A stretch of DNA of 64,000 bases from Candidatus Woesebacteria bacterium GW2011_GWB1_33_38 (GTDB lineage: Bacteria > Patescibacteriota > Microgenomatia > UBA8517): contig LBPF01000001.1 in NCBI GenBank assembly GCA_000990005.1, forward strand, positions 26,315 to 90,314. Direction: 5' to 3'. The notes under the pieces are model-generated. The model was not told the DNA's origin and searched no databases. It saw only the letters and a list, made by a program, of their open reading frames with translations. Numbering within the stretch: position 1 is the stretch's first letter; every line of letters begins with the position of its first letter. The translations under genes and the position numbers were made by a program. This document shows, piece after piece, positions 26,289 to 63,196 of this stretch.

Positions 26289-27736
26289 ATTTTATTAAAA
26301 AAAACTGGATTTTAATTGCAATTTTATTAGTAGGCGCATTTCTTAGGCTTTATAAAATTGATTCGTACATGACCTTTTTAGGAGACGAGGGAAGGGACGT
26401 TATAATTGTTAGAAATTTACTAGTTAATGTTGATCCAATTTTAATTGGTCCAGGTACTTCAGTTGGAGGAATGTATTTAGGTCCACTTTATTATTACTTC
26501 ATGGCACCCTTTTTATTATTAGCAAATTTTTCTCCAGTTGGTCCTGCTATTGGTGTTGCCTTACTTGGCGTTGCAACAATTTATCTAGTTTATAAAGCAG
26601 GACGTGATTGGTTTTCTGAAAAAACAGGATTGTTTACAGCGATATTGTACGCAATTTCACCTACAGTAATTACTTTTTCTCATTCATCTTGGAATCCAAA
26701 CATTATGCCTTTTTTTGCACTTTTATCGGTGTATTCAATCTGGAAGGTTTGGAAATTAAAGCAATTTAAATGGCTTTTGATCTGTTCTGTCTCATATGCA
26801 TTTGTGCTTCAGTCTCACTATTTAGGATTACTTCTTGGACCTATCTTGTTGATATATTGGTTTTTAGCAAAAGTTCCACTTAAATACAATCTAATTCCAT
26901 TATTTGTATTTTTATTTCTAATGTCCCCGTTAGTAATTTTTGACTTTCGTCATGATTTTATGAATAGTAAGGCACTTTATAAGTTTATAACAGTTAGAGA
27001 GGAAACGGTATCAATCAAACCTTGGACAGTAATTCCTAGGCTTTTCCCTATTTTTGAACAAATCAATGAAAGTCTTTTAATTGCTAAGAATATAATTTTT
27101 GGTAAAATAATTACTTTGTTACTATCGTCTTTTCTTATTTTTTCTTTTTTTAAAAATAAAAAACTATTCACTAATCAATATTCACTAATCACTTTGTGGT
27201 TATTGGTAGGATTGGTTGGTTTTGGAATTTATAAACAGCCTGTTTATGATCACTATTTTGGTTTTTTATTTCCTGTACCGTTTTTATTTACTGGAGCTTT
27301 TTTGTCAAAAATATACGAAAGTAAATACAAAATATTTTCTGTTTTAATGTTGGGATATTTAGTTTCAATTAACTTAATTAATTCACCAATTAGGAACTAT
27401 CCCAATAATCAGATGCAGAGAGCAAAAAATGTCTCAACTAAAGTTCTTGAGATTGCTCAAGGTAACCCGTTTAATTTGGCAGTTTTGGCTGAAAGAAATT
27501 ATGAAGACGGTTATAGGTATTTTATGGAACTTAGTGGTGCACAAGTTATGCATGCGGACAGATGGGATCAAAAAACCATAGTTGATAATTTAATTGTTAT
27601 TTGTGAGATGCCTCAAGAAAAATGTGATCCGACACATTCACCAAAAGCTGAAGTTGCCAACTTTGGTTGGAGTAAAATCGAGAATCAATGGACTGTCGAC
27701 GGTGTTATAATATATAAATTGATACACACCCAATGA
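26285..27736 (+). CDS. GT-C-fold membrane glycosyltransferase (ArnT/PMT-like), paralog family A
   Basis: About 11 TM helices and a first-loop motif (LRLYKIDSYMTFLGDEGRD...GPGTSVGGMYLGPLYYY) are present. It is paralogous to the genes at 28703 and 30802. It contains a degenerate heptamer repeat at 27164-27191. Confidence 0.6.
   Translation: MNFIKKNWILIAILLVGAFLRLYKIDSYMTFLGDEGRDVIIVRNLLVNVDPILIGPGTSVGGMYLGPLYYYFMAPFLLLANFSPVGPAIGVALLGVATIYLVYKAGRDWFSEKTGLFTAILYAISPTVITFSHSSWNPNIMPFFALLSVYSIWKVWKLKQFKWLLICSVSYAFVLQSHYLGLLLGPILLIYWFLAKVPLKYNLIPLFVFLFLMSPLVIFDFRHDFMNSKALYKFITVREETVSIKPWTVIPRLFPIFEQINESLLIAKNIIFGKIITLLLSSFLIFSFFKNKKLFTNQYSLITLWLLVGLVGFGIYKQPVYDHYFGFLFPVPFLFTGAFLSKIYESKYKIFSVLMLGYLVSINLINSPIRNYPNNQMQRAKNVSTKVLEIAQGNPFNLAVLAERNYEDGYRYFMELSGAQVMHADRWDQKTIVDNLIVICEMPQEKCDPTHSPKAEVANFGWSKIENQWTVDGVIIYKLIHTQ
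27164..27191 (+). repeat. Degenerate heptanucleotide tandem repeat CTATTCA CTAATCA ATATTCA CTAATCA
   Basis: It lies in-frame inside the GT-C gene and encodes ..LFTNQYSLITLW. Confidence 0.7.
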
Positions 27737-28722
27737 ATTATCCTGAATCACAATTAATTTTAGAGGAAATTAAAAAGGCAAACAAAATACTTTTGAATTG
27801 CCATAGGGGCCCAGACTCAGATACTGTAGGAAGCGCTTTATCCATGGCGGAAATACTTAGAAATATGGGTAAAGAAATAGAAATAATCTGTCCCAGTAAT
27901 ATTCCAGAAGATTTGTTCTTTTTGGAAGGAAGTAAAGATATTAAAAAAGTTGATTTTAAAACTTTTGATTTTTCGGCATTTGATCTATTTATTGTCATGG
28001 ATTCCTCAACTTATGGTATGGTGGCTAACTCAAAAGAGATTGATAAACCTAATACTAAAATTATTGTGATAGATCATCATCATACGAATGAAGGTTTTGG
28101 CAGTATTAATTTGATTGATAGTAAAATTACTTCAACATCAGAACTGCTTTATAAAATATTTTTTGATTGGAGTGTAACTTTAAATCAAAAGGTTGCAACT
28201 TGTTTATTGACGGGAATTATTGGGGATACTGGAGCATTCCAATATGGAGGAGTTGGCAAATCAACCTTGTTGATAGCGGGTGAGTTAATTGATTTAGGGG
28301 CGGATAAAGATGAAATTATTTACAATATTTACAGAAGTATTAATTTCAAGACAATAAAGTTTTGGGGCAAAGTTATTGAAATGATGCAAATTGATGAAAA
28401 AAGTCATTTTGTATGGTCAGCTATACCATTATCGATATATGAAGAATATGGTAAAGACTCTTCAGCCAAAGAAGATGGCGCTAATTTATTTTTCCCAGTA
28501 GTTAAAAACACTGATTTTGGCGTCATCATGGTCGAAACAGATAAAGACATTTTATCTATAAGTTTCAGATCAAGAAAAGATTTTGATGTTTCAAAAATAG
28601 CTGAAGAGGTTGGCGGAGGTGGACACAAGCCGGCAGCGGGAGCAAAAGTTGAAAATCGTTTTGATGAAGCTGTTGAGAAAGTTTTATCTGCTTGCAGAAA
28701 ATATGCTAATAAAAAAGTATAA
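27733..28722 (+). CDS. nrnA: DHH/DHHA1 phosphoesterase (NrnA-like oligoribonuclease/pAp phosphatase)
   Basis: The DHH (IDHHHTNE), GDTG and GGGH motifs are present. Confidence 0.75.
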   Translation: MNYPESQLILEEIKKANKILLNCHRGPDSDTVGSALSMAEILRNMGKEIEIICPSNIPEDLFFLEGSKDIKKVDFKTFDFSAFDLFIVMDSSTYGMVANSKEIDKPNTKIIVIDHHHTNEGFGSINLIDSKITSTSELLYKIFFDWSVTLNQKVATCLLTGIIGDTGAFQYGGVGKSTLLIAGELIDLGADKDEIIYNIYRSINFKTIKFWGKVIEMMQIDEKSHFVWSAIPLSIYEEYGKDSSAKEDGANLFFPVVKNTDFGVIMVETDKDILSISFRSRKDFDVSKIAEEVGGGGHKPAAGAKVENRFDEAVEKVLSACRKYANKKV

Positions 28723-29533
28723 GCAAAGCTTGCTACTTCGTAGTAGAAATTTTTTTACCCCCTGGAATTTATTGATTTTAATAATTTTACTCCTTGCCTT
28801 TATCTTAAGAATTTATAAAATTGGAGAAACTCTTGATTTCCATTATGATCAAGGAAGAGACGCATTAGTTATTTGGGAATTATGGCATAGAGACAAATTA
28901 TTTTTAATTGGACCAGTTACAGGACTTGAGGGAGTTTTTTTAGGTCCACTTTATTATTATTTAATTGCCCCCTTTTATTTAATTAGTGGTGGAAATCCTG
29001 TTATCCCATCTATTTTTTTATCTTTTTTAACTGTTTTATCTTTACTTATTTTATATTTAACTGGCGTTGAACTTGGCGGAAAAGTAACTGGATTTATAGC
29101 CTTAATAATTGGTTCATTTTCAAACTATATTATTTTTTCTAACAGATGGCTTAGTAATCCTACACCTATATATTTAACTTCAATATTAATTTTTTATGTT
29201 ATGATTTTAATTTTAAAAAGACATAAATTTTACTATTGGTACTTCATTTACTTACTAGTTGGTATATCACTGCATTTTGAACTAGCTAGTGCGATCTTTT
29301 ATTTGCCTATCCTTCTTTTTTTTACAATTTGGCAAAAACCTAAATTAAAAATATTTATACTTTCTGCATTTTTCTTGTTTTTGACTTTAATACCTCAAAT
29401 TTTGTTTAATTTTAAACACGAAAATATTTTATTTAACAATATAATCAAAAACTTAGATCAAAATAATTTTGTTGAAATTAATTATTTGGCAAGATTAGAA
29501 AATATATGGAAAATAATCGTTGGGATATTTTGA
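28703..29533 (+). CDS. GT-C-fold glycosyltransferase paralog (family A), N-terminal portion; apparently interrupted by a frameshift near 29506-29533
   Basis: The motif RIYKIGETLDFHYDQGRD...GPVTGLEGVFLGPLYYY parallels the gene at 26285. The ORF stops after about 277 aa, and the expected C-terminal part continues in another frame. Confidence 0.45.
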   Translation: MLIKKYKQSLLLRSRNFFTPWNLLILIILLLAFILRIYKIGETLDFHYDQGRDALVIWELWHRDKLFLIGPVTGLEGVFLGPLYYYLIAPFYLISGGNPVIPSIFLSFLTVLSLLILYLTGVELGGKVTGFIALIIGSFSNYIIFSNRWLSNPTPIYLTSILIFYVMILILKRHKFYYWYFIYLLVGISLHFELASAIFYLPILLFFTIWQKPKLKIFILSAFFLFLTLIPQILFNFKHENILFNNIIKNLDQNNFVEINYLARLENIWKIIVGIF

Positions 29534-32175: not shown

Positions 32176-32232
32176 AGTGTTATATTTAACAAAGTGAAAA
32201 ATGCAATTTTGATAAATCTAATTAATGTTGGT

Positions 32233-32258
32233 GTATCACTGTACTAGTACAGTGATAC
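32233..32258. promoter_or_regulatory. Perfect 26-bp palindrome GTATCACTGTAC-TA-GTACAGTGATAC (type-B site with a TrpR-operator-like GTACTAGTAC core)
   Basis: It shares the outer GTATCA/TGATAC half-sites with the 26-bp palindrome family. It lies 25 bp upstream of another family member, ahead of the SGNH hydrolase gene. Confidence 0.5.
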
Positions 32259-32283
32259 AATTAATTTAAGAGCGTGGTTTCTG

Positions 32284-32308
32284 GATCAATGAATTGATTC
32301 ATTGATAC
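32284..32308. promoter_or_regulatory. Palindrome copy 3 (GATCAATGAAT-TG-ATTCATTGATAC; one base missing in the left arm)
   Basis: It sits immediately upstream (3 nt) of the SGNH hydrolase ORF. Confidence 0.5.
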
Positions 32309-32311
32309 AAG

Positions 32312-33055: not shown

Positions 33056-33059
33056 TCTG

Positions 33060-34837: not shown

Positions 34838-34843
34838 AAATAA

Positions 34844-36376
34844 ATGTATAAAACAAAAAAAATTATAAATGAATGGAAGTGGGCGGGGTTGGGACTATTT
34901 ATAATACTCATAATTGGTTTTGGAATTAGGATTACAAACTTAACAATACTACCTATCTTTGTAGATGAGGCAATATATGTCAGATGGGCACAGGTAATGG
35001 CTAATGAACCAACACTACGGTTTTTGCCTTTATCTGATGGTAAACAGCCTCTTTTTATGTGGATTTTAATGTTTTTAATTAACAGGTTCTCGGACCCTTT
35101 ATTTATAGGCCGTCTGATTTCAGTTTGTACTGGCATGGGTACTTTGCTTGGAGTTTTTACTTTAAGTTATTTACTTTTTAAATCCAAAAAGGTTTCCTTA
35201 TTAGCCTCTTTCCTCTATGCACTTTCACCTTTTGCTGTTTTCTTTGACAGAATGGCGCTTGTCGATTCAATGCTTTCAATGTTTGGTATCTGGACTGCGA
35301 TTTTTGGATTACTAACAGCCAAATACAAAAGGCTTGATCTTGCCATGGTAACTGGATTTTTGTTAGGATTTGCAGTACTTACAAAGTCCCCTGCAATTTT
35401 TATTGCACTTTTATTACCTTCTTTTTGGTTTTTGACAAATTGGAAAGGAATATGGCGATTGGGAGCAACTTATTTAATTGCGTTTGGAATTTACAATATC
35501 CAAAGACTTGGTCCAAATTTTGGGATGTTAACTTCAAGGACAGGAGATTATGTTTTGCCTTTAAGCCATATTTGGACAAACTTTTTTGACCCTTTAATTC
35601 CATACTTAAAAGATTTTGCAGTTTGGATTGTTACAATGGGACCTTTTATTTTAATTCCGTTATTTTTAATTGGAATTTATGTGGGTTTTAAAAAATACTT
35701 TAAAGAGACACTTGTCCTTTTTGCCTGGTTTTTATTCCCACTTTTTGTTCAAGCGGAGTTAGCTCGAGTTTTTACTGCAAGATATATATTTTTTATCTTG
35801 CCATATTTATTTATTTTATCTGGAATGGTTTTCTTATCAAAAGCTAAGTGGTTGCTGGTTACAAGTTATGGGTTAATAGGCCTTTTTGTTATTCAAAGTT
35901 CCATTTTCAATTTTTATTTACTGACAAATCCTGAAAAAGCAAACCTACCAAGGGGGGAAAGGTCTGGCTATTTGGAGGAGTGGACAGCTGGGCAAGGAAT
36001 AGCGGAAATTGCCAATTTCCTGAAAATTCAAAACCTCCAAAATCCAAAAACTCAAATTGTGGTGGGGACAGAAGGATACTTTGGGACACTGCCTGATGGA
36101 CTTCAAATATATGTTAATGATATTCCAAACATTGTAGTCATAGGAGTTGGGGTTATTGTTGATGGTACGCCCAAGAGTTTACGAGAAGCAGTTGATGCAG
36201 GCAATAAAACTTATTTAGTGGTTAATAAATCAAGATTTCATGCTAGTGCTGAGGAACAAGGTTTTAAGTTAATTAATAAGTTTACTAAAGGTTTAAGACT
36301 ACCAGATTCAGATCAATACACTAAGTTTGGTCCTCAAGAAGAACTTTTGTTTTTTGAGGTGCTACAATCTAAATAA
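34844..36376 (+). CDS. GT-C-fold membrane glycosyltransferase (GT39/ArnT/PMT-like)
   Basis: The first-loop acidic motif (ILPIFVDEAIYVRWA) is present. It has about 11 TM helices and a soluble C-terminal domain. Confidence 0.6.
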   Translation: MYKTKKIINEWKWAGLGLFIILIIGFGIRITNLTILPIFVDEAIYVRWAQVMANEPTLRFLPLSDGKQPLFMWILMFLINRFSDPLFIGRLISVCTGMGTLLGVFTLSYLLFKSKKVSLLASFLYALSPFAVFFDRMALVDSMLSMFGIWTAIFGLLTAKYKRLDLAMVTGFLLGFAVLTKSPAIFIALLLPSFWFLTNWKGIWRLGATYLIAFGIYNIQRLGPNFGMLTSRTGDYVLPLSHIWTNFFDPLIPYLKDFAVWIVTMGPFILIPLFLIGIYVGFKKYFKETLVLFAWFLFPLFVQAELARVFTARYIFFILPYLFILSGMVFLSKAKWLLVTSYGLIGLFVIQSSIFNFYLLTNPEKANLPRGERSGYLEEWTAGQGIAEIANFLKIQNLQNPKTQIVVGTEGYFGTLPDGLQIYVNDIPNIVVIGVGVIVDGTPKSLREAVDAGNKTYLVVNKSRFHASAEEQGFKLINKFTKGLRLPDSDQYTKFGPQEELLFFEVLQSK

Positions 36377-37842
36377 TGGAAGACAAGGATTTATCAATTT
36401 CTGACGTAAAAGCAAGGTCGGTTAGAGGCGTTGTTGTCTTAACAGGTAGAACCGTAATTTTACAAGTTGTAACTTTAGTAGCTCAGCTTTTACTTTTTGC
36501 CTATTTGGGAGTTTCTGAATTTGGTGTTTTTGCAATTGTTTCGGCAGTTGTTAACTTTTTGACTTATTTTTCTGACATCGGTTTGGCGGCAGCCTTAATT
36601 CAAAAGAAAGAAACTCCATCTGATACTGATTTAAAAACTACATTTACTGTTCAACAGTGTCTTATTTTGTTTTTAGTTTTAATTTTATTTATTGTTTCCC
36701 CACTAATCACTAATCACTATTCACTGTCCACTGGTGGCCAGTGGTTAATGTATGCACTAGGATTTTCATTGATAATATCTTCTTTGAAAAGTATTCCCTC
36801 TGTTCTACTTGAAAGAAAACTTGAATTTGTTAAGTTGGTTTTCCCTCAAATTCTAGAAACTTTTGTTTATAACATTGTTTTAGTTGTTTTTGCCATGAAA
36901 GGCTTTGGGATAACCAGTTTTACTGTAGCAGTTATTATTAGAAGTTTGGTGGGACTTACCGTAATTTACTGGATACAACCTTGGAAACCGGGATTTTCAT
37001 TTTCTTTATCAACTTTAAAAGATTTATTTAAATTTGGTGTACCTTATCAAATAAATACACTCCTAGCTACATTTAAAGACGATGGAATGACATTAATTTT
37101 GGGTGGAATCATAGGTCCAGCTGGTATTGGGATACTTTCTTTTGCTCAAAAAGTTGCAAGGCTTCCCCTGACCTTTTTTATGGACACAGTAACGAAAGTT
37201 ACTTTCCCTGCATTTTCTAGACTACAAACTGAAAAAGACCATTTAGAAAGAAGCGTTACAAGATCAATATTCTTTATATGTTTACTCGTTTTTCCCAGCT
37301 TAGTTGGGATTGTCATATTGATGCCTTGGGTTGTAGAACTTGTTCCTAAATACAATAAATGGGTGGTTGCACTTACACCGTTATTGTTCATATCAATTAA
37401 TTACGCTTTTGCTTCAGCAACAACCCAATTAACAAATCTTTTAAATGCTATTGGTAAAATTAAAATCACATTTTACTTGATGATTATGTGGACAACTTTG
37501 ACTTGGGTTTTAATCCCTTTCTTGGCCATTAAGTTTGGTGTAAATGGCGCTGCCGTAGGTTACAGTTTAGTTGGACTTTCTTCAGTCGTCGCAGTCTATA
37601 TTGCTAAAAAGTATGTTAATTTTTCAATTAGTGATTCAATGATTAAACCTCTTATGGCCTCAATTATTATGTTTGTTACTTTAGTATTTGTTAGAAAGTT
37701 TTTAGATGTAAGTTTTTACTCCTTGGGAATTTTAGTTTTAGTGGGAGTAATTTCCTATTCTGCCTCAATTATTTCCATGGTCGGTTCAAGTTTGTTAGAA
37801 GATGTTAAAAAAAGCCTTAAAACCATTTTTAATCGCAATTAG
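36376..37842 (+). CDS. wzx: Wzx-like oligosaccharide flippase (MOP superfamily polysaccharide biosynthesis protein)
   Basis: It has 12-14 TM helices, an N-terminal pattern typical of the polysaccharide-biosynthesis (PST) family, and a start overlapping the upstream stop (TAATG). It contains a heptamer repeat at 36702-36729. Confidence 0.7.
   Translation: MEDKDLSISDVKARSVRGVVVLTGRTVILQVVTLVAQLLLFAYLGVSEFGVFAIVSAVVNFLTYFSDIGLAAALIQKKETPSDTDLKTTFTVQQCLILFLVLILFIVSPLITNHYSLSTGGQWLMYALGFSLIISSLKSIPSVLLERKLEFVKLVFPQILETFVYNIVLVVFAMKGFGITSFTVAVIIRSLVGLTVIYWIQPWKPGFSFSLSTLKDLFKFGVPYQINTLLATFKDDGMTLILGGIIGPAGIGILSFAQKVARLPLTFFMDTVTKVTFPAFSRLQTEKDHLERSVTRSIFFICLLVFPSLVGIVILMPWVVELVPKYNKWVVALTPLLFISINYAFASATTQLTNLLNAIGKIKITFYLMIMWTTLTWVLIPFLAIKFGVNGAAVGYSLVGLSSVVAVYIAKKYVNFSISDSMIKPLMASIIMFVTLVFVRKFLDVSFYSLGILVLVGVISYSASIISMVGSSLLEDVKKSLKTIFNRN
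36702..36729 (+). repeat. Degenerate heptanucleotide tandem repeat ACTAATC ACTAATC ACTATTC ACTGTCC
   Basis: It lies in-frame inside wzx and encodes PLITNHYSLST. Confidence 0.75.
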
Positions 37843-39424: not shown

Positions 39425-40274
39425 ACATACCTGTCTTATTTGTGGTAGTAAAAAACATAAAGAATATTGGGCAATGCATGGTTATAAACTAGCAAAATGC
39501 TCTAACTGTTCCTTTGTTTGGGATTTTTTTCATTCTGAAAATGTTTTAGCTCAATATGATAAGAGTTACTTTCAAAACCAAAACCCTAAAGGAGGGTATG
39601 CAAATTACTATGAAGGTATGAGAGTTAATAAGAAAACATTTACAGATAGGCTTAATAAAATACAAAAAAGAATTTCTGGTAAGGGTAAATTTTTGGATGT
39701 TGGTTGTGCACTAGGAGATTGCTTAATGGCCGCAAAAGAAGAAGGTTGGAAAGATGTAAGTGGAGTTGAAGTTTCAAAATTTGCTTACGAGTTTGCCATA
39801 AAAAGAGGCTTAAATGTTAAAAATACTACACTTGATAAGGCGGGGTTTAAACCTAATTCGTTTGAGGCAATAGCCTATCAAGATGTTATTGAACATGTTG
39901 AAGATCCTCTTTATGAACTTGAAACAGCTCACAAACTGCTTAAAAACAAAGGTTATATTTTTCTCGTTACTCCTGATGTAGGTGGTCTATGGCACAAACT
40001 TCTTAATGGCCTTTGGTATCATTATAAACCAGGTGAGCATATTATGTATTTTTCACAGGCATCACTTAGGTTGGCACTTGAAAAAACTGGATACAAAAAC
40101 ATTGAAACTAGAAGAACGTATCATGTTTTAAGTATTGAATATGTTTTAAATCGACTTAAATATTATTCACCCTTCATTTTTGACAATCTGGCAAAGATTG
40201 TGCATGGGTTTCATTTTAAAGATTTTGCATTTAAAGCCTATACTGGAGAAATTGAAGCATGGGGTCAAAAATAG
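39408..40274 (+). CDS. Class I SAM-dependent methyltransferase with N-terminal CxxC...CxxC zinc ribbon
   Basis: The zinc-ribbon pattern is CLICGS...CSNCSF. The SAM-binding motif LDVGCALGDC and an acidic loop are present. I prefer the ATG at 39408 over the track start at 39357. Confidence 0.7.
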   Translation: MAKLTKHTCLICGSKKHKEYWAMHGYKLAKCSNCSFVWDFFHSENVLAQYDKSYFQNQNPKGGYANYYEGMRVNKKTFTDRLNKIQKRISGKGKFLDVGCALGDCLMAAKEEGWKDVSGVEVSKFAYEFAIKRGLNVKNTTLDKAGFKPNSFEAIAYQDVIEHVEDPLYELETAHKLLKNKGYIFLVTPDVGGLWHKLLNGLWYHYKPGEHIMYFSQASLRLALEKTGYKNIETRRTYHVLSIEYVLNRLKYYSPFIFDNLAKIVHGFHFKDFAFKAYTGEIEAWGQK

Positions 40275-49587: not shown

Positions 49588-51252
49588 GTGAAACGATACA
49601 TTTGGTATATTTTGGTTATTTTAGCCGTAATCCCAGCTTGTTGGAACTTGATGCGTCCTGGTTTTTTCTCCATGCAGGATGATTTACAGGCATTTCGTGT
49701 ACAACAACTTGATAAATGTCTGGATGACTTCCAAATTCCCTGCCGTTGGGTGCCTGATGCAGGTTATGGTTATGGTTATCCTCAGTTTAATTATTACCCT
49801 CCATCTGTTTATTATGTTGGAGCATTACTGCATAGGTTAGGTTTGCAATACATAGATACAGTAAAAATACTCTTTATCTTAGGTTATTTTGCCTCGGCAC
49901 TTGCTATGTTTATTTTGGTTGACTCTTTGATTGGCTCATGGCCAGCCTTTGTATCTTCAATTCTTTATACATATGTGCCTTATAAAGCAGTTGAGGTTTA
50001 CGTTAGAGGAGCAATGAGTGAGTTTTGGGCCTTAACTTTCTTCCCCCTGGTTCTTTGGGCAATATATATGCTAATAAAAAATGGGTCTAAAAAATATTTA
50101 GTTTTATTTTCATTATTTTTAGGTCTACTTCTAACCACTCATAATTTAATGTCTTTAATTTTTGCTCCGATTGCTTTAATTTGGGCAGGATATTGGTTAA
50201 TTGGAGAAAGTAAAAATAAGTGGATCAAAGTTGGTTTATCAGGACTCTTGGGTCTTGGTTTAGCTGCCTTTTTTACACTACCTGTAATTTTTGAGAAAAA
50301 TTTTGTTCATGTTGATTCTATCCTCTCTGGATATTTTGATTATCGTGCACATTTTGTCAGTTTGTATAAGTTGTTTATTTCACGAGAGTGGGGTTATGGT
50401 TCATCTGGTTTTCCAAATGAGCTTTTAAATCTTTCAACAGGGCTTGTCCAATGGATTGTAGGTTTATTAGCAGCGGGCATTGCTTTTGTGAATTACAAAA
50501 AAGAGCGAAAACTATCTATTTTAACTTTATTACTTTGTATCTTATCACTAGTCACCATCTTCATGATTCATATGAAATCAAGCTTTATTTGGGTCAAACT
50601 CCCAATCTTGTGGTGGTTACAGTTTCCATGGAGATATTTAGCGGTTAGTATATTTCTTTTATCAATTTTAGGTGGATTTGCTATCCACTTTTCTAAAAAA
50701 TATAAATATTTATTTGGAGGAATAATTATTATTAGCGTCTTTGTTTTAAATATTGGTTTCTTTGTTCCCAAAGATTGGATTAACATAACAGATAAGGAAA
50801 AGTTTTCAGGAATAAGTTGGCAGAAACAAATGACGATATCGATTTTTGATTATTTGCCAATTTTCGCTGTACTTCCACCAATTAACGAAGCTCCAGATGT
50901 TCCTGAAATTATGGACGGAAAAGCAGAGATATTAAATTACGAAAAAGGCAGTAATTTTCAAACTGGAGATATTAAAGTATTAGAAAATGCGAATATTCGT
51001 TTACCATTATTTGACTTTCCAGGGATGCAGGTTAAAGTTAATGGGCAAAAAGTAAATCATTACAATAATGATTGTAGAGGTACAGACTTTTGTTATGGAT
51101 TAATTTCTTTTAAATTGTCTAAAGGTGAATATAAAATTACGGCAAGACTTACCGATACACCAATTAGAAAAATAGGAAATTTTCTAACATTAACTAGTAT
51201 ACTGATATTGTTTTGGTTAATTATTAAAAATGAAAAAACTCTTACAAAATAA
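49588..51252 (+). CDS. Polytopic membrane protein, paralog family C copy 1 (PTPS-related/PF10131-like GT-C-type)
   Basis: The conserved first loop is QDDLQAFRVQQLDKCLDDFQIPCRWVPDAGYGYGYPQFNYYP. It has about 13 TM helices and a C-terminal beta-rich domain. Confidence 0.55.
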   Translation: MKRYIWYILVILAVIPACWNLMRPGFFSMQDDLQAFRVQQLDKCLDDFQIPCRWVPDAGYGYGYPQFNYYPPSVYYVGALLHRLGLQYIDTVKILFILGYFASALAMFILVDSLIGSWPAFVSSILYTYVPYKAVEVYVRGAMSEFWALTFFPLVLWAIYMLIKNGSKKYLVLFSLFLGLLLTTHNLMSLIFAPIALIWAGYWLIGESKNKWIKVGLSGLLGLGLAAFFTLPVIFEKNFVHVDSILSGYFDYRAHFVSLYKLFISREWGYGSSGFPNELLNLSTGLVQWIVGLLAAGIAFVNYKKERKLSILTLLLCILSLVTIFMIHMKSSFIWVKLPILWWLQFPWRYLAVSIFLLSILGGFAIHFSKKYKYLFGGIIIISVFVLNIGFFVPKDWINITDKEKFSGISWQKQMTISIFDYLPIFAVLPPINEAPDVPEIMDGKAEILNYEKGSNFQTGDIKVLENANIRLPLFDFPGMQVKVNGQKVNHYNNDCRGTDFCYGLISFKLSKGEYKITARLTDTPIRKIGNFLTLTSILILFWLIIKNEKTLTK

Positions 51253-52846
51253 CTGGCAGCTTGCTTTAATTTTTGTTCTAGGAATATTTGTTTCATTGCC
51301 GTTGTTTAGGAGCGGATATTTTTCTCATCAAGATGATTTGCATGTAATAAGGATAGTTGAAATACGAAAATGTTTTACCGACTTCCAAATTCCTTGCCGT
51401 TGGGTGCCAGATATGGGTTGGGGAAATGGAATGCCTGTTTTTAATTTCTACGGTGTTTCAGTTTATTACATTGGTGCAATATTAAGTTATTTTGTAGGCT
51501 TTTTAGGTGCATCTAAATTGCTTTTCTTTGCAAGTTTAATATTTGGTAGTTTCGGTCTTTATTTACTGGTCAGAGATTTGTGGGGAAAATATGCAGGTTT
51601 AACTTCAGCAGTACTTTATATGTTTGCCCCCTACAAGGCTCTTGATGTTTATGTTAGGGGTGCGCTTTCAGAAAGTATGGCCTTAGCAATTATTCCCTTT
51701 GTTTTTTACTTTTTTTACAAAAAGTCATTCGGTTGGGCAACCTTTTTCTTGGCTTTATTTTTGATAACACACAATATTATGACTGTCGTATTTCTACCCG
51801 TAATTATTGTATGGATCTTATATCTACTTTGGAGCGAAAATCGGGAACATTATAAGTTATTTTTACTAAGTTTATTACTTGCTTTTGGTCTCTCTGCTTT
51901 TTTTACGTTACCTGCATTTTTGGAAAAAAATTTGGTACAAACAGAAAGTTTAACTAGGTTTGAACTTGATTACAGGGCAAACTTTATCAGTATTCGACAA
52001 TTATTTTTTGATAGAGTTTGGGGATATGGAACCTCAATTCCGGGTCCAACTGGCGCTATGAATTTTCAAATTGGTTGGCCACACTGGATCCTTGCTGTTT
52101 TCACCCCAATCTTCCTATTTTTTAGGAAAACTAAAAAACACTTGCTACTTACTACATTCTACTTTCTACTGTTTGTCATCTCCATTTATATGACTCACAA
52201 TAAGTCAACTATTTTTTGGGAAAATATTAGTATTTTACAGTTTTTTCAATTTCCGTGGAGATTTTTATCGCTATCTATTTTTACATCATCACTTTTGGGG
52301 GGAGTGATTGTTTTTATGACAAAAGAAAAATGGCAAAAGATATTAGCAATAATAATTATAAGTTTGACAGTTTTATTAAATTGGGGTTATTTTAGACCTA
52401 GAGAATATTATGACATTAATGATTCACAAAAATTAACAGGGAATTTATGGGAAGAACAGAGACGTGGTGCACTTTTAGATTATTTACCTAAAACTGCTCT
52501 AGAACCAAGAGAAGGTGCTCCTGAAAATCCGTTAATAATTTCTGGAGAAGCAAAATTAATCAACTTTGTAAATCAGTCGAATCGCTTTTCATTTAATGCC
52601 GATGTAATGACAGTAAGTCAAATCGATATTCCAGTATTTTATTTTCCAAACTGGGAAGTTAAGGTTGATGGAAATAAGCATCTTGTAACACATGATAATA
52701 TTTTAGGTAGAATTTCAATTTTATTAACTCCGGGGCAACATGAGGTAATTGGTAATTTCAAAAACACTCCACTTAGAACATTTGCAAATATGATATCAAT
52801 CATTAGTTTGTTTGCTTTGTTGGGTTTTATAAAATGCAAAAAATAA
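51230..52846 (+). CDS. Polytopic membrane protein, paralog family C copy 2
   Basis: It has the same loop motif (HQDDLHVIRIVEIRKCFTDFQIPCRWVPDMGWGNGMPVFNFY) and architecture. Confidence 0.55.
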   Translation: MKKLLQNNWQLALIFVLGIFVSLPLFRSGYFSHQDDLHVIRIVEIRKCFTDFQIPCRWVPDMGWGNGMPVFNFYGVSVYYIGAILSYFVGFLGASKLLFFASLIFGSFGLYLLVRDLWGKYAGLTSAVLYMFAPYKALDVYVRGALSESMALAIIPFVFYFFYKKSFGWATFFLALFLITHNIMTVVFLPVIIVWILYLLWSENREHYKLFLLSLLLAFGLSAFFTLPAFLEKNLVQTESLTRFELDYRANFISIRQLFFDRVWGYGTSIPGPTGAMNFQIGWPHWILAVFTPIFLFFRKTKKHLLLTTFYFLLFVISIYMTHNKSTIFWENISILQFFQFPWRFLSLSIFTSSLLGGVIVFMTKEKWQKILAIIIISLTVLLNWGYFRPREYYDINDSQKLTGNLWEEQRRGALLDYLPKTALEPREGAPENPLIISGEAKLINFVNQSNRFSFNADVMTVSQIDIPVFYFPNWEVKVDGNKHLVTHDNILGRISILLTPGQHEVIGNFKNTPLRTFANMISIISLFALLGFIKCKK

Positions 52847-54462
52847 TATCTAAATATTTATTACTAGTAATTTTGATTTTATCAATTCCTGCTGTCCGCT
52901 ATCTTTTTGTCAATGGTTATTTTGGTGTTTCTGATGACCTGCATATTGGCTGGCTTTTTGAGATGAATAGGGCTGTTAAAAGTTTACAATTTCCACCCAG
53001 ATATGTCCCTGATTTAAGTTTTGGTTTTGGCTATCCTCTTTTTACTTTTGTATATCCTCTTCCATTTTACATCGCAGAAATATTTCATTTGATAGGCTTT
53101 TCGCTAGTTAATAGTGTGAAGTTGGTTTTTGGTTTATCAGTTCCTGTATCTATGTATTTCATGTATAAACTTCTAAGAGTATATATGAAGGAGGATTTTT
53201 CGCTAGCCGGTGCTGTTCTCTATGTCTATGCGCCCTACAGGGCTTTAGAATTTTTTGTTAGAGGGACGATAGGAGAGATAACGGCTTTTGTATTTTTTCC
53301 ACTAATCATTTTGGCAATAATAAAAAACAAGCCATACATACTTGCTCTATCTTTTGCTGGTCTAATATTGTCACACAATATTATGGCATATATGTTCATG
53401 CCTTTTTTACTGTTGTTTGTTATCTTAAGAATTTATTTTGTTTCTGTAGACCGTAGTCAATCAGTGGTTAGCAGTTTAAAGTCTTTAGTTTTAGGTCTTT
53501 TGTGTTCTGTCTATTTTTGGCTCCCTGCAATATACGAAAGTACTTTAATGAAATACGATACAGTCTTTAATTTTTATGACCATTTCCCTGCACTAAAACA
53601 ATTTATCACTCCATATTGGGGATATGGGGCATCTGTTCCTGGAAATTATGACACAATGTCTTTTTACATGGGTGCTGTGGGAATTTTAGTTGTTATTTTT
53701 GGTTCAATTATATTTCTCTTAAAAAGAAAAAAATATTCGACAGAGGAAAAGATTTTTATTAGTTGGTCTATAATAGTCTGTTTACTCAGTGTGTTTATGA
53801 TGAATTTTCGTTCGGCTTGGTTTTGGAGAAATTTACCACTTCTACCATACTTCCAATTTCCATGGAGATTTCTGGCAATGGTCACATTAGTTAGTCCGAT
53901 ATTTATGATTGTGTTTTCAAAATTCAAAATATTTAGATTTGTACCATTTATTGTCATCTTCCTTTCAATTTTTCTTAACTTTAATTATTTTAAGACTAGT
54001 GAATATTTAGGTAGAAACGACGATTATTATATAAATAGATATATACCAATTCCTTCAGCAAGTACCCAATATTTGAAAACTTCAGAAGAATATTTAAGAC
54101 TTCCAAAGGAAACAGAAATAAAACCAGACAAGAATTATCCTAGAGCCTTTACAGAAAATCGTGACGCATTACTTGAAATCGAGGAGTTAAATCCACTAGA
54201 TGCAATTATTCAAACTGATAGTAAAAGTGAATTTGTGTTAAGTTATAATAAATATAACTACCCAGGCTTTGGAGCTATAGTTGATGGACAAAAAGTTGAA
54301 ATATTTTCTGGCAAGCCGTTTGGGCAAATTTCAATTAACATACCAAGTGGAAAGCATGAAGTAACAGTAGAGTACAAAGAGTCACTGTTTAGATTGATAT
54401 TTGATATTATTTCAATATCGGCAATTGGAATATCTGTATATTTAATAATTAAAAAGAGATGA
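52834..54462 (+). CDS. Polytopic membrane protein, paralog family C copy 3
   Basis: It carries a divergent loop motif (SDDLHIGWLFEMNRAVKSLQFPPRYVPDLSFGFGYPLFTFVYP) and the same architecture. Confidence 0.55.
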   Translation: MQKIISKYLLLVILILSIPAVRYLFVNGYFGVSDDLHIGWLFEMNRAVKSLQFPPRYVPDLSFGFGYPLFTFVYPLPFYIAEIFHLIGFSLVNSVKLVFGLSVPVSMYFMYKLLRVYMKEDFSLAGAVLYVYAPYRALEFFVRGTIGEITAFVFFPLIILAIIKNKPYILALSFAGLILSHNIMAYMFMPFLLLFVILRIYFVSVDRSQSVVSSLKSLVLGLLCSVYFWLPAIYESTLMKYDTVFNFYDHFPALKQFITPYWGYGASVPGNYDTMSFYMGAVGILVVIFGSIIFLLKRKKYSTEEKIFISWSIIVCLLSVFMMNFRSAWFWRNLPLLPYFQFPWRFLAMVTLVSPIFMIVFSKFKIFRFVPFIVIFLSIFLNFNYFKTSEYLGRNDDYYINRYIPIPSASTQYLKTSEEYLRLPKETEIKPDKNYPRAFTENRDALLEIEELNPLDAIIQTDSKSEFVLSYNKYNYPGFGAIVDGQKVEIFSGKPFGQISINIPSGKHEVTVEYKESLFRLIFDIISISAIGISVYLIIKKR

Positions 54463-55583
54463 CACGTTTTATAGCAATAGTTTTAACAATTGGGATAATC
54501 TTAAGAATTATATTGTCTCTTGCGACATATCATTCTGATGTTATCCCATTTGATTTTGCTGGGAAAGTAATTTTAGAAGGTAATATCACAAACTTTTACG
54601 ATTATCTTTGGGACCTTCCTGAAGATCACCCGTATTTAAAAGTATATCCGAGAAACTTATTTAACTATCCACCACTTCCTTATTTCTTTTTAGGGGGAGC
54701 GTCGCTTTTAACAACTTGGATGGTAGACCAAAATGTTCATAATAATTTTATATTAGATTTTTCAAAAACCCTAGGCAGTCCCCAGCTTAATTTACTGTTA
54801 TTTTTAATGAAACTTCCATACTTTTTCTTTGATATAGCATTAGCTTTTGTATTGATGGGATTATTTAAAACAGAGAAAGAAAAAAAATGGGCATTTGCAC
54901 TTAGTGCTGTTTTGTTAGGTCTTGGTGCAGGTTTTAAAATATTTCCACTGTTATTTATAATTCCTTTGGTCTTAGTTAAAACTGATTGGTGGGAAAGATT
55001 TAAAATATTATTTACATCGGGGATTACTTATTTGGTGTTTTCATTTCCGTTTATTTTATCAGAAGGTTTTAGAAGAACTGCAATGCTGGCTGGCCAAACA
55101 ACAAAAAGCTTTTACGCGCAAATACCAATTTCAGGTGGTGAATCAGTAATTCTTTTTCTTGTTGCAACTATTTTTATATATTTAATATTTCTTTACCATA
55201 AGACTTACATTGAGTCTTTGTGGCAAAATTTATTTATTATTATATTAACATTTTTCATCTTTACCCATTTTCACCCACAGTGGTTTTTGTGGACAATGCC
55301 ATTTTTTGTGCTGGATTTAGTTTATACAAAGTTTAAACACTGGCCGTTGTTTGTTGGTTTACTAATGACATATGTGGGAATGATTAGTTTTTTTGATTCA
55401 GGTCTGTCTGTTGGTCTTTTTTCAGCAGTTAATCCTGCGCTTTATAATTTGCCAGGTTTTTGGAAAATGATGGGAACAAGTCTTGATATTAATATGGCAA
55501 GAAGTTTATTGCATAGTGTTTTTGTTGGAATTTCGGCCTATTATATATATTACTATTTCCCAAGAAAAGAAAATGAACCTTAG
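54459..55583 (+). CDS. Polytopic membrane protein, paralog family D (DUF2029/GT87-like?)
   Basis: It has about 10 TM helices and a first-loop motif (HSDVIPFDFAGK). It is homologous to the next gene. Confidence 0.5.
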   Translation: MTRFIAIVLTIGIILRIILSLATYHSDVIPFDFAGKVILEGNITNFYDYLWDLPEDHPYLKVYPRNLFNYPPLPYFFLGGASLLTTWMVDQNVHNNFILDFSKTLGSPQLNLLLFLMKLPYFFFDIALAFVLMGLFKTEKEKKWAFALSAVLLGLGAGFKIFPLLFIIPLVLVKTDWWERFKILFTSGITYLVFSFPFILSEGFRRTAMLAGQTTKSFYAQIPISGGESVILFLVATIFIYLIFLYHKTYIESLWQNLFIIILTFFIFTHFHPQWFLWTMPFFVLDLVYTKFKHWPLFVGLLMTYVGMISFFDSGLSVGLFSAVNPALYNLPGFWKMMGTSLDINMARSLLHSVFVGISAYYIYYYFPRKENEP

Positions 55584-58332: not shown

Positions 58333-58333
58333 A

Positions 58334-60160: not shown

Positions 60161-61572
60161 TACTTACAAATTATATACTAATTGCCATACTTCTATTAGG
60201 CTTTGCAATTCGAGCCTATAAGATAAATTCAATGCCCTTGTATGGGGATGAACTTACCATTGTTTATGATTCATACTCGCTTCTTTTGACAGGAAAAGAT
60301 CAAACAGGCGAAGCCTTCCCTCTAACATTTAAAATGGGTGTAGGTAGGCCTGCTGGATATGTCTATGGCAGTGTACCTTTTGTAGCCATCTTTGGGCCCA
60401 GTGTTTGGGGGGTAAGGGGATTATCTTTTGTATCGGGTCTTGGAATTATTGTTTTAATGTACTTCCTGGGTAAAAAGTTATTCAGTGAAAAGGTCGGACT
60501 TATTGCAAGTTTTTTAACTGCCATATCTATGTGGGATATATATCTCTCCCGAGCAGGATTTGAGGCTCATTTTGCGTTATTTCTTGCTCTTTTTGGGGTA
60601 GTTATGTTTTTATATAAAAAGTATATTCCCATGGCTCTTGGCATTGGTCTGGCTATTTTTACCTATCCAACATTTAAATTAACTCTGCCATTACTGCTTT
60701 TAATTTTAGTCATATATACTAATTTTAAAGAAATAATTAAAAGCAAATTATTTATAATCGCCTTAATTATTTTGACATTATTCGCAGCTTTATCTATTAG
60801 AGAAACATTAAAAGGCGTTTCAGAAGAAAGATTTTTAAGATTAAATGTTTTATCTGATTCTAATTTGAGAGAAGAGATTACTCAAAAGATAAATGAAGAA
60901 AGAACATTATCAACCTTACCTAAAATTATTAAGCCGTTGGTTTATAACAAGCCTTTAAAGTATGTAAGAGTGTTATTTGAAGGTTATATGGAAAACCTCT
61001 CACCCGAATTTCTTTTTTTAAGAGGGGATAGAAATCCAAGGCATAATCCTGGCGAGTGGGGAATGTTATACATAATTGAATTACTAGTTTTACTTTTTGG
61101 TTTATATCAGCTTAAAAAGAATAGTCCAAAAGACTTATATTTATTATTAACTTGGATATTAATAGTTCCCCTGGCTACAATGTTTTTGGGACAAACTCAT
61201 GCTCTTCGTAATAATTTAATGATTCCACCATTTATATTAATTTCTGCTTACGCGCTAGATTGCGTTTCGAAGAAAATGCGATTTATTATATTTACCATGA
61301 TGTGTGTTCAACTTATTGCAGTGCTTGTAACTATTTATTATTATGCACCAAATAAGTTTGGTAGTTTCTGGTCGCTTGAGGCCAAAAATGCATCACTAAA
61401 AGCAATAAAAGAAAGTCAAGATCACGAGATTATGCTATCAACTGATATAGACAATATTGAATACGCCTATCCAGTTTATGCTAAGGTTGACCCAAGACTT
61501 GTAATATCACAATATCAAAAATGGCCAAAAATATATGGCAATGTAACAATTACTGATCAAAATGAAAAGTAA
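60103..61572 (+). CDS. GT-C-fold membrane glycosyltransferase (ArnT-like), paralog family E
   Basis: The first-loop motif is IRAYKINSMPLYGDELTIVYDSYSL. The ATG at 60103 would overlap the 5' end of the divergent minus-strand gene by 58 nt, so the true start may be downstream or non-ATG. Confidence 0.5.
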   Translation: MIGRLIGRIQKLIPSVKFPLLTNYILIAILLLGFAIRAYKINSMPLYGDELTIVYDSYSLLLTGKDQTGEAFPLTFKMGVGRPAGYVYGSVPFVAIFGPSVWGVRGLSFVSGLGIIVLMYFLGKKLFSEKVGLIASFLTAISMWDIYLSRAGFEAHFALFLALFGVVMFLYKKYIPMALGIGLAIFTYPTFKLTLPLLLLILVIYTNFKEIIKSKLFIIALIILTLFAALSIRETLKGVSEERFLRLNVLSDSNLREEITQKINEERTLSTLPKIIKPLVYNKPLKYVRVLFEGYMENLSPEFLFLRGDRNPRHNPGEWGMLYIIELLVLLFGLYQLKKNSPKDLYLLLTWILIVPLATMFLGQTHALRNNLMIPPFILISAYALDCVSKKMRFIIFTMMCVQLIAVLVTIYYYAPNKFGSFWSLEAKNASLKAIKESQDHEIMLSTDIDNIEYAYPVYAKVDPRLVISQYQKWPKIYGNVTITDQNEK

Positions 61573-63196
61573 ATTAATATTAATATTAGCCCTCGCATTT
61601 TTTTTAAGATTTTACAAAATTACTTCAATTCCTCCATCCTTAAATTGGGATGAGACCTCAATTGCTTATAATGCATATTCAATTTTAAAGACGGGGAGAG
61701 ATGAATGGGGACAGTTTATGCCTGTTCACTTTAAATCATTTGGAGAGTATAAACTACCTGCTCAAATATATGCATCAATTCCGGGAGTTGCCATCTTTGG
61801 ACTAAACGAGTTTGGGGTTCGCATCACCCCTGTTGTTTATGGAACTTTAACAATATTTCTTTTATATCTTTTAGCGCAGGAACTGTACAGAAAAAGATAT
61901 ATTTCTTTAATTTCGGCATTTCTTTTAGCTGTTTCTCCTTGGCACATTCAACTTACTCGCGCTTCATTTGAATCATCATTCTCTTTATTTTGGTTTTTGC
62001 TGGCCTTACTGTTTTTAGTTAAAGGTTTAAAAGAAAAAAAATGGATTATTGTTTCAATGGTTCCGTTTGTAATTTCGGTCTATACTTACAACACAGCAAG
62101 AATTTTTACACCATTGTTCTTGTTTGTTTTTTATCTATTAAATTTTAATTTTTTCTTGAAGAATCTTAAATATTTAGCATTTAGCTTTTTAGCATTTATA
62201 TTTTTAACTTCGCCCATTATACCTTTTGTTCTTTCGGGAGATGCCTCTGCACGCTATAAGTTAGTTAGTATTACAAATGATAAAGGACTAATCCCTAGAA
62301 TTGAAGAAAGAAGAAATTTATCAAAATTATCACCTATTTTTACAAAATTAATTCATAACAGATATACATATAACACATATTATTTTAGTCAAAACTATCT
62401 TGCCCACTTTAGTCCAAGTTTTTTATTTCTTAAAGGTGCTGGTCATCACCAACATCATGTTCAAGGTGTTGGTGAGCTATATTGGTTCCAAGCCCCATTT
62501 TTATTGTTTGGTATTTTTGTACTGTTAAAAAAGAAAGATCTTAGTTTAAAAATATTACTGCCATGGTTACTGTTATCGTTTGTGCCTGTTTCTATGACCA
62601 ATGATAGTATTCCCAATGCACTTCGCACCTTAATTGCTGCCCCTGTTTATCAGATTTTTACTGCAGTTGGTATATATGAATTCATACAAAAGACTAAAGA
62701 CCAAAGACTAAAGACTGCAATAATCGCGACAACAGTTGCTCTATTTATAATTAACTTTTGTATATTTGCAACTAATCTCTATACCCTATACCCTATACGC
62801 TATTCTCGAGACTGGCAATATGGGAACAAACAGGTTGTTGAATATATAAAGGATCATATGGATGAGTACAGTTTAATTGTTTTTACAAGACACTATGGAG
62901 AACCACACATTTTTACACTTTTCTATTTAAAATATGATCCAGCCAGATTTCAGAACAGTTATAATTTAGAGAGGTTTGAAACTTTTGATTGGGTAAGAGT
63001 ACTAAGATTTGATAGATTTTATTTTCCTGACCTAGGGGATGAAGGTACAAAATATCAAGATGTCATTAAGGCAAATAAAGGCAAAAAAATATTATTTATT
63101 GGAAAACCTGGTGATTTCCCACCTGAGGCCAAAATACTTGAAAAAATTTATTTCCTAAACGGTGAACCAGCATTCGAAATAACAAATAATCTATGA
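61562..63196 (+). CDS. GT-C-fold membrane glycosyltransferase (ArnT-like), paralog family E
   Basis: The first-loop motif is LRFYKITSIPPSLNWDETSIAYNAYSI. It contains the heptamer repeat at 62771-62805. Confidence 0.6.
   Translation: MKSKLILILALAFFLRFYKITSIPPSLNWDETSIAYNAYSILKTGRDEWGQFMPVHFKSFGEYKLPAQIYASIPGVAIFGLNEFGVRITPVVYGTLTIFLLYLLAQELYRKRYISLISAFLLAVSPWHIQLTRASFESSFSLFWFLLALLFLVKGLKEKKWIIVSMVPFVISVYTYNTARIFTPLFLFVFYLLNFNFFLKNLKYLAFSFLAFIFLTSPIIPFVLSGDASARYKLVSITNDKGLIPRIEERRNLSKLSPIFTKLIHNRYTYNTYYFSQNYLAHFSPSFLFLKGAGHHQHHVQGVGELYWFQAPFLLFGIFVLLKKKDLSLKILLPWLLLSFVPVSMTNDSIPNALRTLIAAPVYQIFTAVGIYEFIQKTKDQRLKTAIIATTVALFIINFCIFATNLYTLYPIRYSRDWQYGNKQVVEYIKDHMDEYSLIVFTRHYGEPHIFTLFYLKYDPARFQNSYNLERFETFDWVRVLRFDRFYFPDLGDEGTKYQDVIKANKGKKILFIGKPGDFPPEAKILEKIYFLNGEPAFEITNNL
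62771..62805 (+). repeat. Degenerate heptanucleotide tandem repeat ACTAATC TCTATAC CCTATAC CCTATAC GCTATTC
   Basis: It lies in-frame and encodes TNLYTLYPIRYS. Confidence 0.75.

Follow-up and report, generated by a model that had tools for sequence, protein, structure and literature searches.

Short heptanucleotide tandem repeats were found in frame within glycan-assembly genes along a 64,000-nt stretch of Candidatus Woesebacteria bacterium GW2011_GWB1_33_38 (contig LBPF01000001.1; the whole of this stretch is referred to below as the window). These heptamer tracts are a property of the whole Woesebacteria lineage and not of the window alone. We consider that they are probably self-homogenising heptanucleotide microsatellites, seated in permissive loops of the glycan-assembly genes and acting there as frameshift hot spots. 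The evidence comes from a census of related loci, from the way in which the arrays avoid stop codons, from the exchange of repeat units at orthologous positions and from a natural allele in which two units have been lost.

Heptamer tracts in the window and across the lineage

A total of seven tracts with a period of 7 or 14 nt were found in the window, all in frame and distributed over six open reading frames (ORFs) of the + strand. The most regular one is a perfect ACAAATC repeat of 4.3 copies at 43905-43934 (peptide LQITNHKSQIT) in a GT2 glycosyltransferase gene (43663-44385, hereafter GT2-240). The Polysacc_synt_3/Wzx-type flippase gene wzx (36376-37842) carries an ACTAATC-type tract at 36700-36733 (peptide PLITNHYSLST) in which 2.6 perfect copies are followed by two degenerate units, positions 36702-36729 reading ACTAATC, ACTAATC, ACTATTC and ACTGTCC. 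Two tracts occur in the PMT/GT-C gene at 61562-63196, one at 62689-62716 (AAAGACT, AAAGACC, AAAGACT, AAAGACT; peptide QKTKDQRLKT) and one at 62771-62805, where an ACTAATC unit precedes 2.9 copies of CTATACC and a degenerate unit (peptide TNLYTLYPIRYS). The PMT_2/GT-C gene at 26285-27736 has a degenerate tract at 27164-27191 (CTATTCA, CTAATCA, ATATTCA, CTAATCA, equivalent to a 14-mer in 1.9 copies; peptide LFTNQYSLIT). Two double-heptamer units, GTTCACTGCTCATC and GTTCACTGCTCACC, form a tandem 14-mer at 40921-40948 (peptide LFTAHRSLLT) in the gene at 40259-41914, which encodes a protein with 11 transmembrane (TM) segments that has no Pfam match and goes under the UniRef name RgtA/B/C/D-like glycosyltransferase domain. 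Finally, a gene for a 10-TM protein (51230-52846) contains the degenerate heptamers ACTTGCT, ACTTACT, ACATTCT, ACTTTCT and ACT (ACTTNCT in 4.4 copies) at 52140-52170, with the peptide HLLLTTFYFLL.

Five of these tracts had been listed in the original prediction, and for them the sequence was found to be exact at every position and in frame in long + strand ORFs, each of the five also being called independently when Tandem Repeats Finder (TRF) was run on the window. That inventory was incomplete, as the tracts at 52140-52170 and 62689-62716 had been overlooked. The TCAC core proposed as common to all is true of four tracts and false for CTATACC at 62779, while the statement that the tracts always lie in loop-like hydrophilic segments does not hold for several of them, which code for hydrophobic peptides (HLLLTTFYFLL; ALFTFYFLLFTF in orthologs). 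Outside the GT2-240 tract, the longest perfect runs have 2.6 copies (36702) and 2.9 copies (62779), with fewer than two heptamer copies elsewhere. The cut-off used in the field for simple sequence repeats (SSRs) is at least three repeats for unit sizes 5-9 (PMC8091471); it is passed by the GT2-240 tract only, and the other six tracts of the window fail it. A weak period-7 tract was also observed at 20246-20276 (AAATTGA in 4.4 copies, 75% matches; peptide QIENLKLNNEK, which is kept in close relatives). The surrounding ORF of 434 amino acids (19609-20913) has neither a Pfam match nor a TM segment, and this tract, which falls below the array threshold, is the sole candidate outside glycosyltransferase (GT) and membrane genes.

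Within the window, 10 matches to (TCACNNN)3 were found when up to one mismatch was allowed, all of them on the + strand, against 0.21 expected, and self-matching segments were found three times at lag 7 and twice at lag 14 compared with approximately none in dinucleotide shuffles. An uptake-signal-like or Chi-like motif was ruled out by a k-mer enrichment scan of the window, in which single copies of the heptamers show no over-representation.

The census was carried out on two sets, the window with 49 orthologous species-genome loci from GTDB and a set of 80 metagenome loci, and covers 1.49 Mb of orthologous glycan clusters from more than 100 related genomes after removal of duplicate loci (individual loci are given below by L numbers). 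The first set contains 29 arrays of period 7 and five of period 14, with at most four arrays of any other period between 4 and 21; the metagenome set contains 34 and three, with at most five of any other period. The in-frame periods 6, 9 and 12 are rare in both. Inside ORFs lie 51 of 55 arrays, and all 51 belong either to polytopic-membrane ORFs (27 arrays in 825 kb) or to GT ORFs (24 arrays in 483 kb), compared with none in 167 kb of other ORFs (binomial p = 0.003). The earlier claim that the tracts are enriched in envelope-glycan genes is thus upheld, at a suggestive level, for a sample that is centred on glycan clusters and includes only 167 kb of other ORFs. The four further arrays occur in 33 kb of non-ORF sequence, where the density per kb is yet higher.

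The 51 ORF-borne arrays represent 35 distinct consensus units. The arrays are all on the coding strand and all in the first 76% of their genes, with no N-terminal bias. Guanine makes up 7% of the sense strand of the arrays, against 20% in the coding background and 21% expected for stop-free random heptamers, and this depletion runs opposite to the GC skew, which is positive on the + strand of the window. Among perfect period-7 tracts, the copy numbers have a second mode at 4-4.9, and no such tract reaches five copies.

Stop codons, unit turnover and length variants

The tracts had been treated as repeats of the DNA, and this proved correct: neither the 7-nt periodicity nor the placing of the deviations at stop codons can be explained by a peptide motif. 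A heptamer repeat passes through all three codon phases every 21 nt, and a perfect (ACTAATC)3 carries TAA in every frame. In tract 27164, a perfect (CTAATCA)n would contain an in-frame TAA at a place where the sequence has TAT, and in the third unit of the wzx tract an A-to-T change likewise makes an in-frame TAA into TAT. The lone deviation in tract 62689, a T-to-C change in unit 2, turns GAC-TAA into GAC-CAA and so removes an in-frame TAA. The consensus unit has a stop in one phase in 17 of the 51 ORF-borne arrays, and 22 of the 39 deviations from consensus in those 17 arrays hit would-be in-frame stops, which occupy 11% of the positions (p = 1e-11); outside the would-be stop codons these arrays are approximately 96% perfect. 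Among the GT2-240 orthologs with the peptide I-T-N-H-x-S-L-I-T, x is Y, Q, K or R, and the Y, Q and K codons are one base away from TAA. The arrays are therefore as perfect as the reading frame permits, and most deviations merely remove a would-be stop.

At least four gene families have arrays at orthologous positions, the units differing by lineage. The GT2-240 loop (residues 80-91) holds ACAAATC in 4.3 copies in the window and also in L013, GAATCAC in 4.4 copies in L105, GGAAATT in four copies in L083, AATTTAC in L016, L050 and L075, GTCAACC/GTTCACC in L005, GTCAAAG in L022, CCATTAG in L100, and ACTAATC or ACTGATC in L080 and L065. A lag-7 identity of at least 80% is seen in this loop in 20 of 111 non-redundant orthologs, compared with 0-3 for periods 5, 6, 8 and 9. 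The loop has 22 residues in 78 of 115 orthologs, and in deep-branching orthologs it is non-repetitive and two residues shorter. In the AlphaFold2 model of the GT2-240 protein, a GT-A fold (pLDDT 91.9) whose closest solved structures are SunS/ThuS and TarS/TarP, the tract is predicted to run from the last part of helix 73-84 through a turn into the first part of strand 90-101.

The other families show the same behaviour. Around residues 220-235 of the 40259 family, orthologs carry CATACTA in four copies, TCTTACA, ATTCTAC, TCATAAA or ACTAATC, the exceptions being L011 and the closest ortholog L049, which are without the 33 nt. At the site of tract 52140, the 51230 family has ACTTTTT in 4.9 copies (L031, L038), TGTTACT (L008) or ACATTCT (L013). 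Orthologs of wzx have a loop of equal length without a repeat and have only the YSL codons in common with the window; these codons are the apparent origin of the wzx tract, which would have extended upstream from them. The tracts had been regarded as insertions; loop length in the wzx, GT2-240 and 40259 families is, on the contrary, the same as in tract-less orthologs. Since loop length is mostly unchanged and different units occupy one site, the arrays overwrite loops and do not insert into them. Alignment of orthologs thus bears out the lineage-specific nature of the units and for the most part not their insertion, GT-C 26285 being the case where the gene exceeds its closest ortholog (L086) by seven residues (21 nt) at the tract. 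Recurrence of the tracts at matching sites of distant orthologs had been expected to mark ordinary conserved codons; the positions do recur, but conservation extends to the position and to the 7-nt periodicity and not to the codons.

Between certain orthologs the arrays themselves are strongly conserved. For five ortholog pairs, no other 33-nt segment of the whole gene is as well conserved as the array; the window and L013 have 31 of 33 array bases in common and L016 and L050 have 35 of 35, with genes that are 66% identical in both cases. A sequence-specific function of the arrays is unlikely because the units vary so much between lineages. Homogenisation would presumably account for this conservation, as it would expose every base of an array to selection in three codon phases and leave no site effectively synonymous.

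Some orthologs have a second heptamer site at the very beginning of the GT2-240 gene, in codons 4-15 (L080 45-78, L095 17-48, L096 2684-2715), where units of AAAATTC (4.7 copies) and AAAGGTC (3-4 copies) overlap the 3' end of the GT2 gene that lies upstream. The C-terminal tails of GT2 orthologs (…STIHT) look repeat-derived, and this is putatively attributed to overlap with the start of the next gene.

The products expected after changes of one, two and three units were modelled and then looked up by exact match among approximately 15 billion proteins. For GT2-240, the models predict truncated products of 91-125 residues when one or two units are gained or lost, and the 91-residue product of the loss of two units was found. 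The locus L052 (ENA ERZ27254745, contig k141_1099024, 206 kb) is an independent assembly of the same strain and matches window positions 33663-53952 with 100% identity across 20,290 nt, apart from the missing positions 43905-43918; this loss amounts to exactly two ACAAATC units and splits the gene into 91 and 112 residues. If differences were placed at random, the chance of the sole difference falling in the 30-nt tract is approximately 0.0015. An assembler artefact is unlikely to be behind this allele because collapse at the smallest usual k-mer removes one unit, not two, and because the tract is shorter than larger k. The GT2-240 tract is the only tract of the window with demonstrated length polymorphism and, as read from this contig, the loss of two units would switch the gene off in a wild population.

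Another frameshift was found in a different GT2 gene, where a 14-nt tandem duplication of AAAAACTTGCCAAA (L107 2751-2764 versus L018 5696) shifts the frame of the N-terminal region. It is present in one of four assemblies that are 99.7-100% identical (L018, L108 and L110 are without it) and that are relatives of Woesebacteria GW2011_GWA1_41_7, and it represents a de novo copy of formerly unique sequence. Both of the discrete indels resolved, in L052 and L107, are of 14 nt or two units. An AAATTCG array of 3.7 copies was found in L019, L112 and L113 and is missing in the 95%-identical L025. With the truncated GT2-240 gene of L052 and the frameshifting duplication of L107, the proposal that the tracts are hot spots of frame-shifting gain and loss of units was borne out.

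Most searches for further variants gave negative results. Exact look-up gave no match for GT2-240 with -1, +1, +2, -3 or +3 units, for wzx with -1, +1 or -2 units, for either tract of 61562 (A and B) with -1, +1 or -2 units, for 40259 with -14 or +14 nt or for 26285 with -14 nt. No variant of the degenerate tracts 27164, 36702, 40921, 62689 and 62779 was seen in 20-40 assemblies, the GT-C 61562 protein is identical across 28 blocks of assemblies, and the tract peptides are unchanged in 90%-cluster members, which are close relatives of the host proteins. Orthologs in 49 genomes show no frameshift at a tract, the single frameshift in wzx (L018) being elsewhere in the gene, and 0 of the 111 non-redundant GT2-240 orthologs are frameshifted. 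The flank-gap-flank pattern around the GT2-240 tract had no match in the JGI metagenomes, a collection from which the species is absent. Listing of contigs by neighbouring genes merges contigs that differ in one gene and cannot reveal tract variants; L052 was masked in this way.

Two further candidates for tract variants, L002 and L054, were rejected as they reflect scaffold N-gaps, together with one 21-nt indel in the L054 comparison. This indel (L054 9444-9467, on a Rifle scaffold of the same strain) replaces AAA at window positions 42192-42194, in the GT2 gene at 41877-42770, with CACAAAACAATTAAAAAAGTTGGT. It makes the sequence 21 nt (seven residues) longer, contains no heptamer repeat and may be an assembly artefact, given the N-gaps of the scaffold; the loop that contains it, between the DPDE motif and IPR, is the structural counterpart of the tract loop of GT2-240. 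A separate length difference was observed at 54902/54903 in the GT87-like gene at 54459-55583, where the window is without 120 nt (40 codons, in frame, no tandem repeat) that are present in all four of the other assemblies fetched (L058-L061; 414 residues versus 374 in the window). The 374-residue product has no record in the protein collection.

Gene cluster, hairpin mini-element and related systems

The window has a G+C content of 32% and nearly all of its genes are on the + strand. Its proteins are exact matches to Rifle groundwater entries, those of Candidatus Woesebacteria GW2011_GWA1_33_30 and GWA2_33_28. Between 23 and 64 kb lies a single large glycan-assembly cluster with many GT2, GT1, GT-C/PMT_2 and GT87/MptA-like genes, wzx and sugar-nucleotide enzymes, and its synteny is kept across the class (49 GTDB loci).

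A dispersed mini-element was also found in these loci. It consists of a conserved 15-mer, TAAGCRAAGCTTGGC, followed by a short, variable hairpin such as CCGGCTTTGCCGG or CCAATGAAATTGG and then TAA. The 15-mer has 21 exact matches in 19 of 142 loci, on the gene strand only, against a back-of-envelope chance expectation of approximately 0.006; copies occur at L013 18658, L049 14782, L067 12586, L071 10245, L072 17365, L083 3882, L124 10255 and L137 8211, among others. The copies are mostly in frame within long ORFs, where they encode peptides of the form [YNH]KQSLA..GK or ISKAWP.., and in three independent loci the element lies inside the GT2-240 heptamer loop, most copies being elsewhere. The window contains one degenerate copy at 28720-28755 (TAAGCAAAGCTTG CTAC TTC GTAG TAG), which covers the stop codon of a DHH gene and codons 6-17 of the following PMT_2 gene. 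No Rfam family was matched in the window, this copy included. The mini-element resembles the small dispersed repeats (SDRs) of cyanobacteria and the Rickettsia palindromic elements (RPEs).

Heptanucleotide repeats in cyanobacteria, the short tandemly repeated repetitive (STRR) sequences, were reportedly described by Mazel in 1990 and by Elhai in 2008, with SDR mini-elements embedded in them. STRRs form a few fixed unit families that are dispersed in the genomes of heterocystous cyanobacteria and are mostly intergenic. The two systems are alike in a lineage-wide preference for 7-nt tandem units, and they may also be alike in having tiny hairpin elements (approximately 21-30 nt) inside arrays and in frame in genes. 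The tracts described here differ in their diverse units (35 consensus units in 51 arrays), in their location within ORFs at orthologous loops and in their host, a member of the Candidate Phyla Radiation (CPR).

A close parallel to a single tract is the variable number tandem repeat of neuO (AAGACTC) in the E. coli K1 phage CUS-3, a translated 7-nt repeat in a glycan-modifying gene in which slippage toggles the frame (PMC13001214). It is one 5'-terminal tract of 3-53 copies that is ON only at multiples of three and is OFF in 65.6% of genomes (PMC13001214). Both systems have a 7-nt tandem unit within the coding sequence of a surface-glycan enzyme; the Woesebacteria tracts, however, lie mid-gene, have at most 4-4.9 copies, are spread over many genes, are essentially always ON and have lineage-specific units at conserved positions. 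SSR contingency loci in GT genes are also described for Neisseria pglA/E/H/G, for the tetranucleotide lipooligosaccharide genes of Haemophilus and for polyG tracts in Campylobacter (PMC8091471; PMC2651432, PMC8437040). They share with our tracts the placing of non-triplet repeats within ORFs for glycan assembly and the occurrence of frameshift alleles in natural populations, whereas the tracts of these host-adapted pathogens are long, vary in copy number between strains, are often OFF and are not deeply conserved in position. Among these genes, pglE carries a heptanucleotide tract. Borg elements have perfect tandem repeats that create disordered protein regions (PMC9879509). They resemble the present arrays as lineage-specific, fast-evolving and near-perfect tandem repeats within ORFs. 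The Woesebacteria arrays are short and replace existing loops, and their 7-nt unit shifts the frame.

Glycan genes in which a non-triplet SSR slips are already known, and so is, in the cyanobacterial STRRs, a heptamer preference of a lineage. As far as our searches show, the new features are the occurrence in CPR bacteria, the retention of position and period while the unit itself turns over, the ceiling of fewer than five copies, the patching of stops, the depletion of G on the sense strand and the spread over several genes of one conserved cluster; no paper on heptamer repeats in CPR bacteria was found in the literature.

Origin and meaning of the tracts

Chance or the composition of an AT-rich genome was excluded as the origin of the tracts. 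The G+C content and the low-scoring AT-rich period-7 rows of the TRF output point in that direction, but shuffles give approximately no such arrays and only period 7 is in excess, a result that was repeated in a second, independent set, so that we give practically no credence to this explanation. The original prediction had also raised the repeated insertion of a small sequence element into envelope genes; such an element would carry the ACTAATC/TCAC core. TCAC at 7-nt spacing in four genes of the window, ACTAATC-type arrays that code for L-I-T-N-H-x-S-L-I-T in different families and genomes, the additional 21 nt of GT-C 26285 and the existence of a true mini-element that inserts in frame in these loci, three times in the GT2-240 array loop, would all suit this idea. 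It is contradicted by the unrelated units at one orthologous site (ACAAATC, GAATCAC, GGAAATT, AATTTAC, GTCAACC, GTCAAAG and CCATTAG in the GT2-240 loop), by loops of the wzx, GT2-240 and 40259 families that are no longer than those of array-less orthologs, by the apparent growth of the wzx tract from ancestral YSL codons and by the ordinary single-copy frequency of the heptamer in the window. The tracts are also without terminal repeats, target duplications or terminal structure, and we regard such insertion as very unlikely; a mobile-element reading of the heptamers (RPE-like or of the miniature inverted-repeat transposable element type) was rejected for their lack of defined ends and target duplication and for a loop length that is unchanged except in GT-C 26285. 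An equally slim prospect is that the tracts form a sequence-specific cis element of the DNA or mRNA (a protein or small-RNA site, a pause or a processing signal) or a selected peptide motif. Several ortholog pairs in which the tract is better conserved at the nucleotide level than the catalytic motifs, the strong depletion of G on the sense strand and the confinement of arrays to the coding strand favour such an element, but the units differ widely between lineages at each site and between genes in each genome, with only period and composition in common, and the Rfam search of the window was negative. A peptide motif would give a 21-nt periodicity, not a 7-nt one, without constant synonymous positions.

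Selected contingency loci are a doubtful though serious possibility. Under this explanation, second-order selection keeps the arrays, and the stochastic switching on and off of glycan genes diversifies the surface of an episymbiont, for example towards phage or in host attachment. It would agree with the strong preference for a frame-shifting period over in-frame periods within ORFs, the confinement of arrays to surface-glycan genes, the persistence of sites over deep divergence with arrays more conserved than the rest of the gene, the location of arrays where a frameshift would inactivate the protein, the natural OFF allele of L052 and the passing of the SSR cut-off by the GT2-240 tract. The 'programmed variability' of the original prediction was not sustained, as 0 of 111 GT2-240 orthologs are frameshifted, copy numbers stay below five and the degenerate tracts showed no variants in 20-40 assemblies. 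The remaining tract-bearing genes likewise have no frameshift at the tract in the 49 genomes, the near-constant loop length differs from the wide copy range and frequent OFF state of neuO, most arrays are imperfect, N-terminal bias is absent, and the conservation and synteny of the cluster across the class point to a core function. Classical high-frequency phase variation is thus not supported. On/off switching is a real consequence of the tracts; selection for low-rate switching, as contingency behaviour, is possible but is not the likelier case.

The explanation that we favour, self-homogenising microsatellites in permissive loops, would operate as follows. Replication slippage or unequal exchange would copy or delete units of 7 or 14 nt in a few permissive loops of GTs, the flippase and GT-C-like membrane proteins, slippage being the mechanism that we infer at the molecular level. 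Turnover of units would keep each tract uniform, so that units are alike within a tract and different between lineages. Selection for an open frame would fix the length of the tract, and one base change would patch the stops borne by the units. As 7 is not divisible by 3, each gain or loss of a unit would shift the frame, and a perfect tract would therefore be a hot spot for revertible null alleles. In the window, an appreciable switching rate is likely only for the perfect GT2-240 tract (43905-43934); the degenerate, stop-patched tracts now act as ordinary stable codons.

Several points weigh against this explanation. Slippage alone fails to explain why period 7 is preferred over other non-triplet periods, why the sense strand is poor in G and why an imperfect array is unchanged between L016 and L050. 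The sole length variant of the tracts in the window is one contig, against at least 23 contigs (38 blocks) of full length, and an assembler error is possible; ten predicted variants of one or two units in five tracts were absent among the approximately 15 billion proteins. The census, in addition, consists almost wholly of glycan clusters, and 167 kb of other ORFs make a weak test of enrichment. A more speculative and rather improbable reading is that an active lineage-specific process, possibly templated or RNA-mediated and related to the STRR/SDR system, writes and maintains G-poor, 7-nt-periodic sense-strand tracts at surface-glycan loops that are shared with the mini-element of approximately 30 nt. 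The tracts would then be exploited as low-rate switches in multiple genes that vary the surface glycan combinatorially, perhaps also in other CPR bacteria.

CPR bacteria are uncultured episymbionts whose surface glycans probably mediate host attachment and phage exposure, and to our knowledge almost nothing is known of how they vary their surface. The heptamer tracts at fixed loops of GT2, Wzx and GT-C-like genes provide concrete loci that can be scored from reads, and at least one of them yields natural null alleles. They also add the Woesebacteria, phylogenetically remote from the cyanobacteria, as a second lineage in which 7-nt tandem units are strongly preferred; for the preference seen in the cyanobacterial STRRs we know of no explanation. 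Here the constraint of the reading frame allows the dynamics to be read comparatively, through stop patching, copy numbers below five and homogenisation without change of length, which makes the origin of heptamers more tractable. Even if the tracts are neutral by-products, they would still serve as strain markers and as a caution in annotation, where a frameshifted GT gene in these bacteria may be a slippage allele and not a pseudogene.

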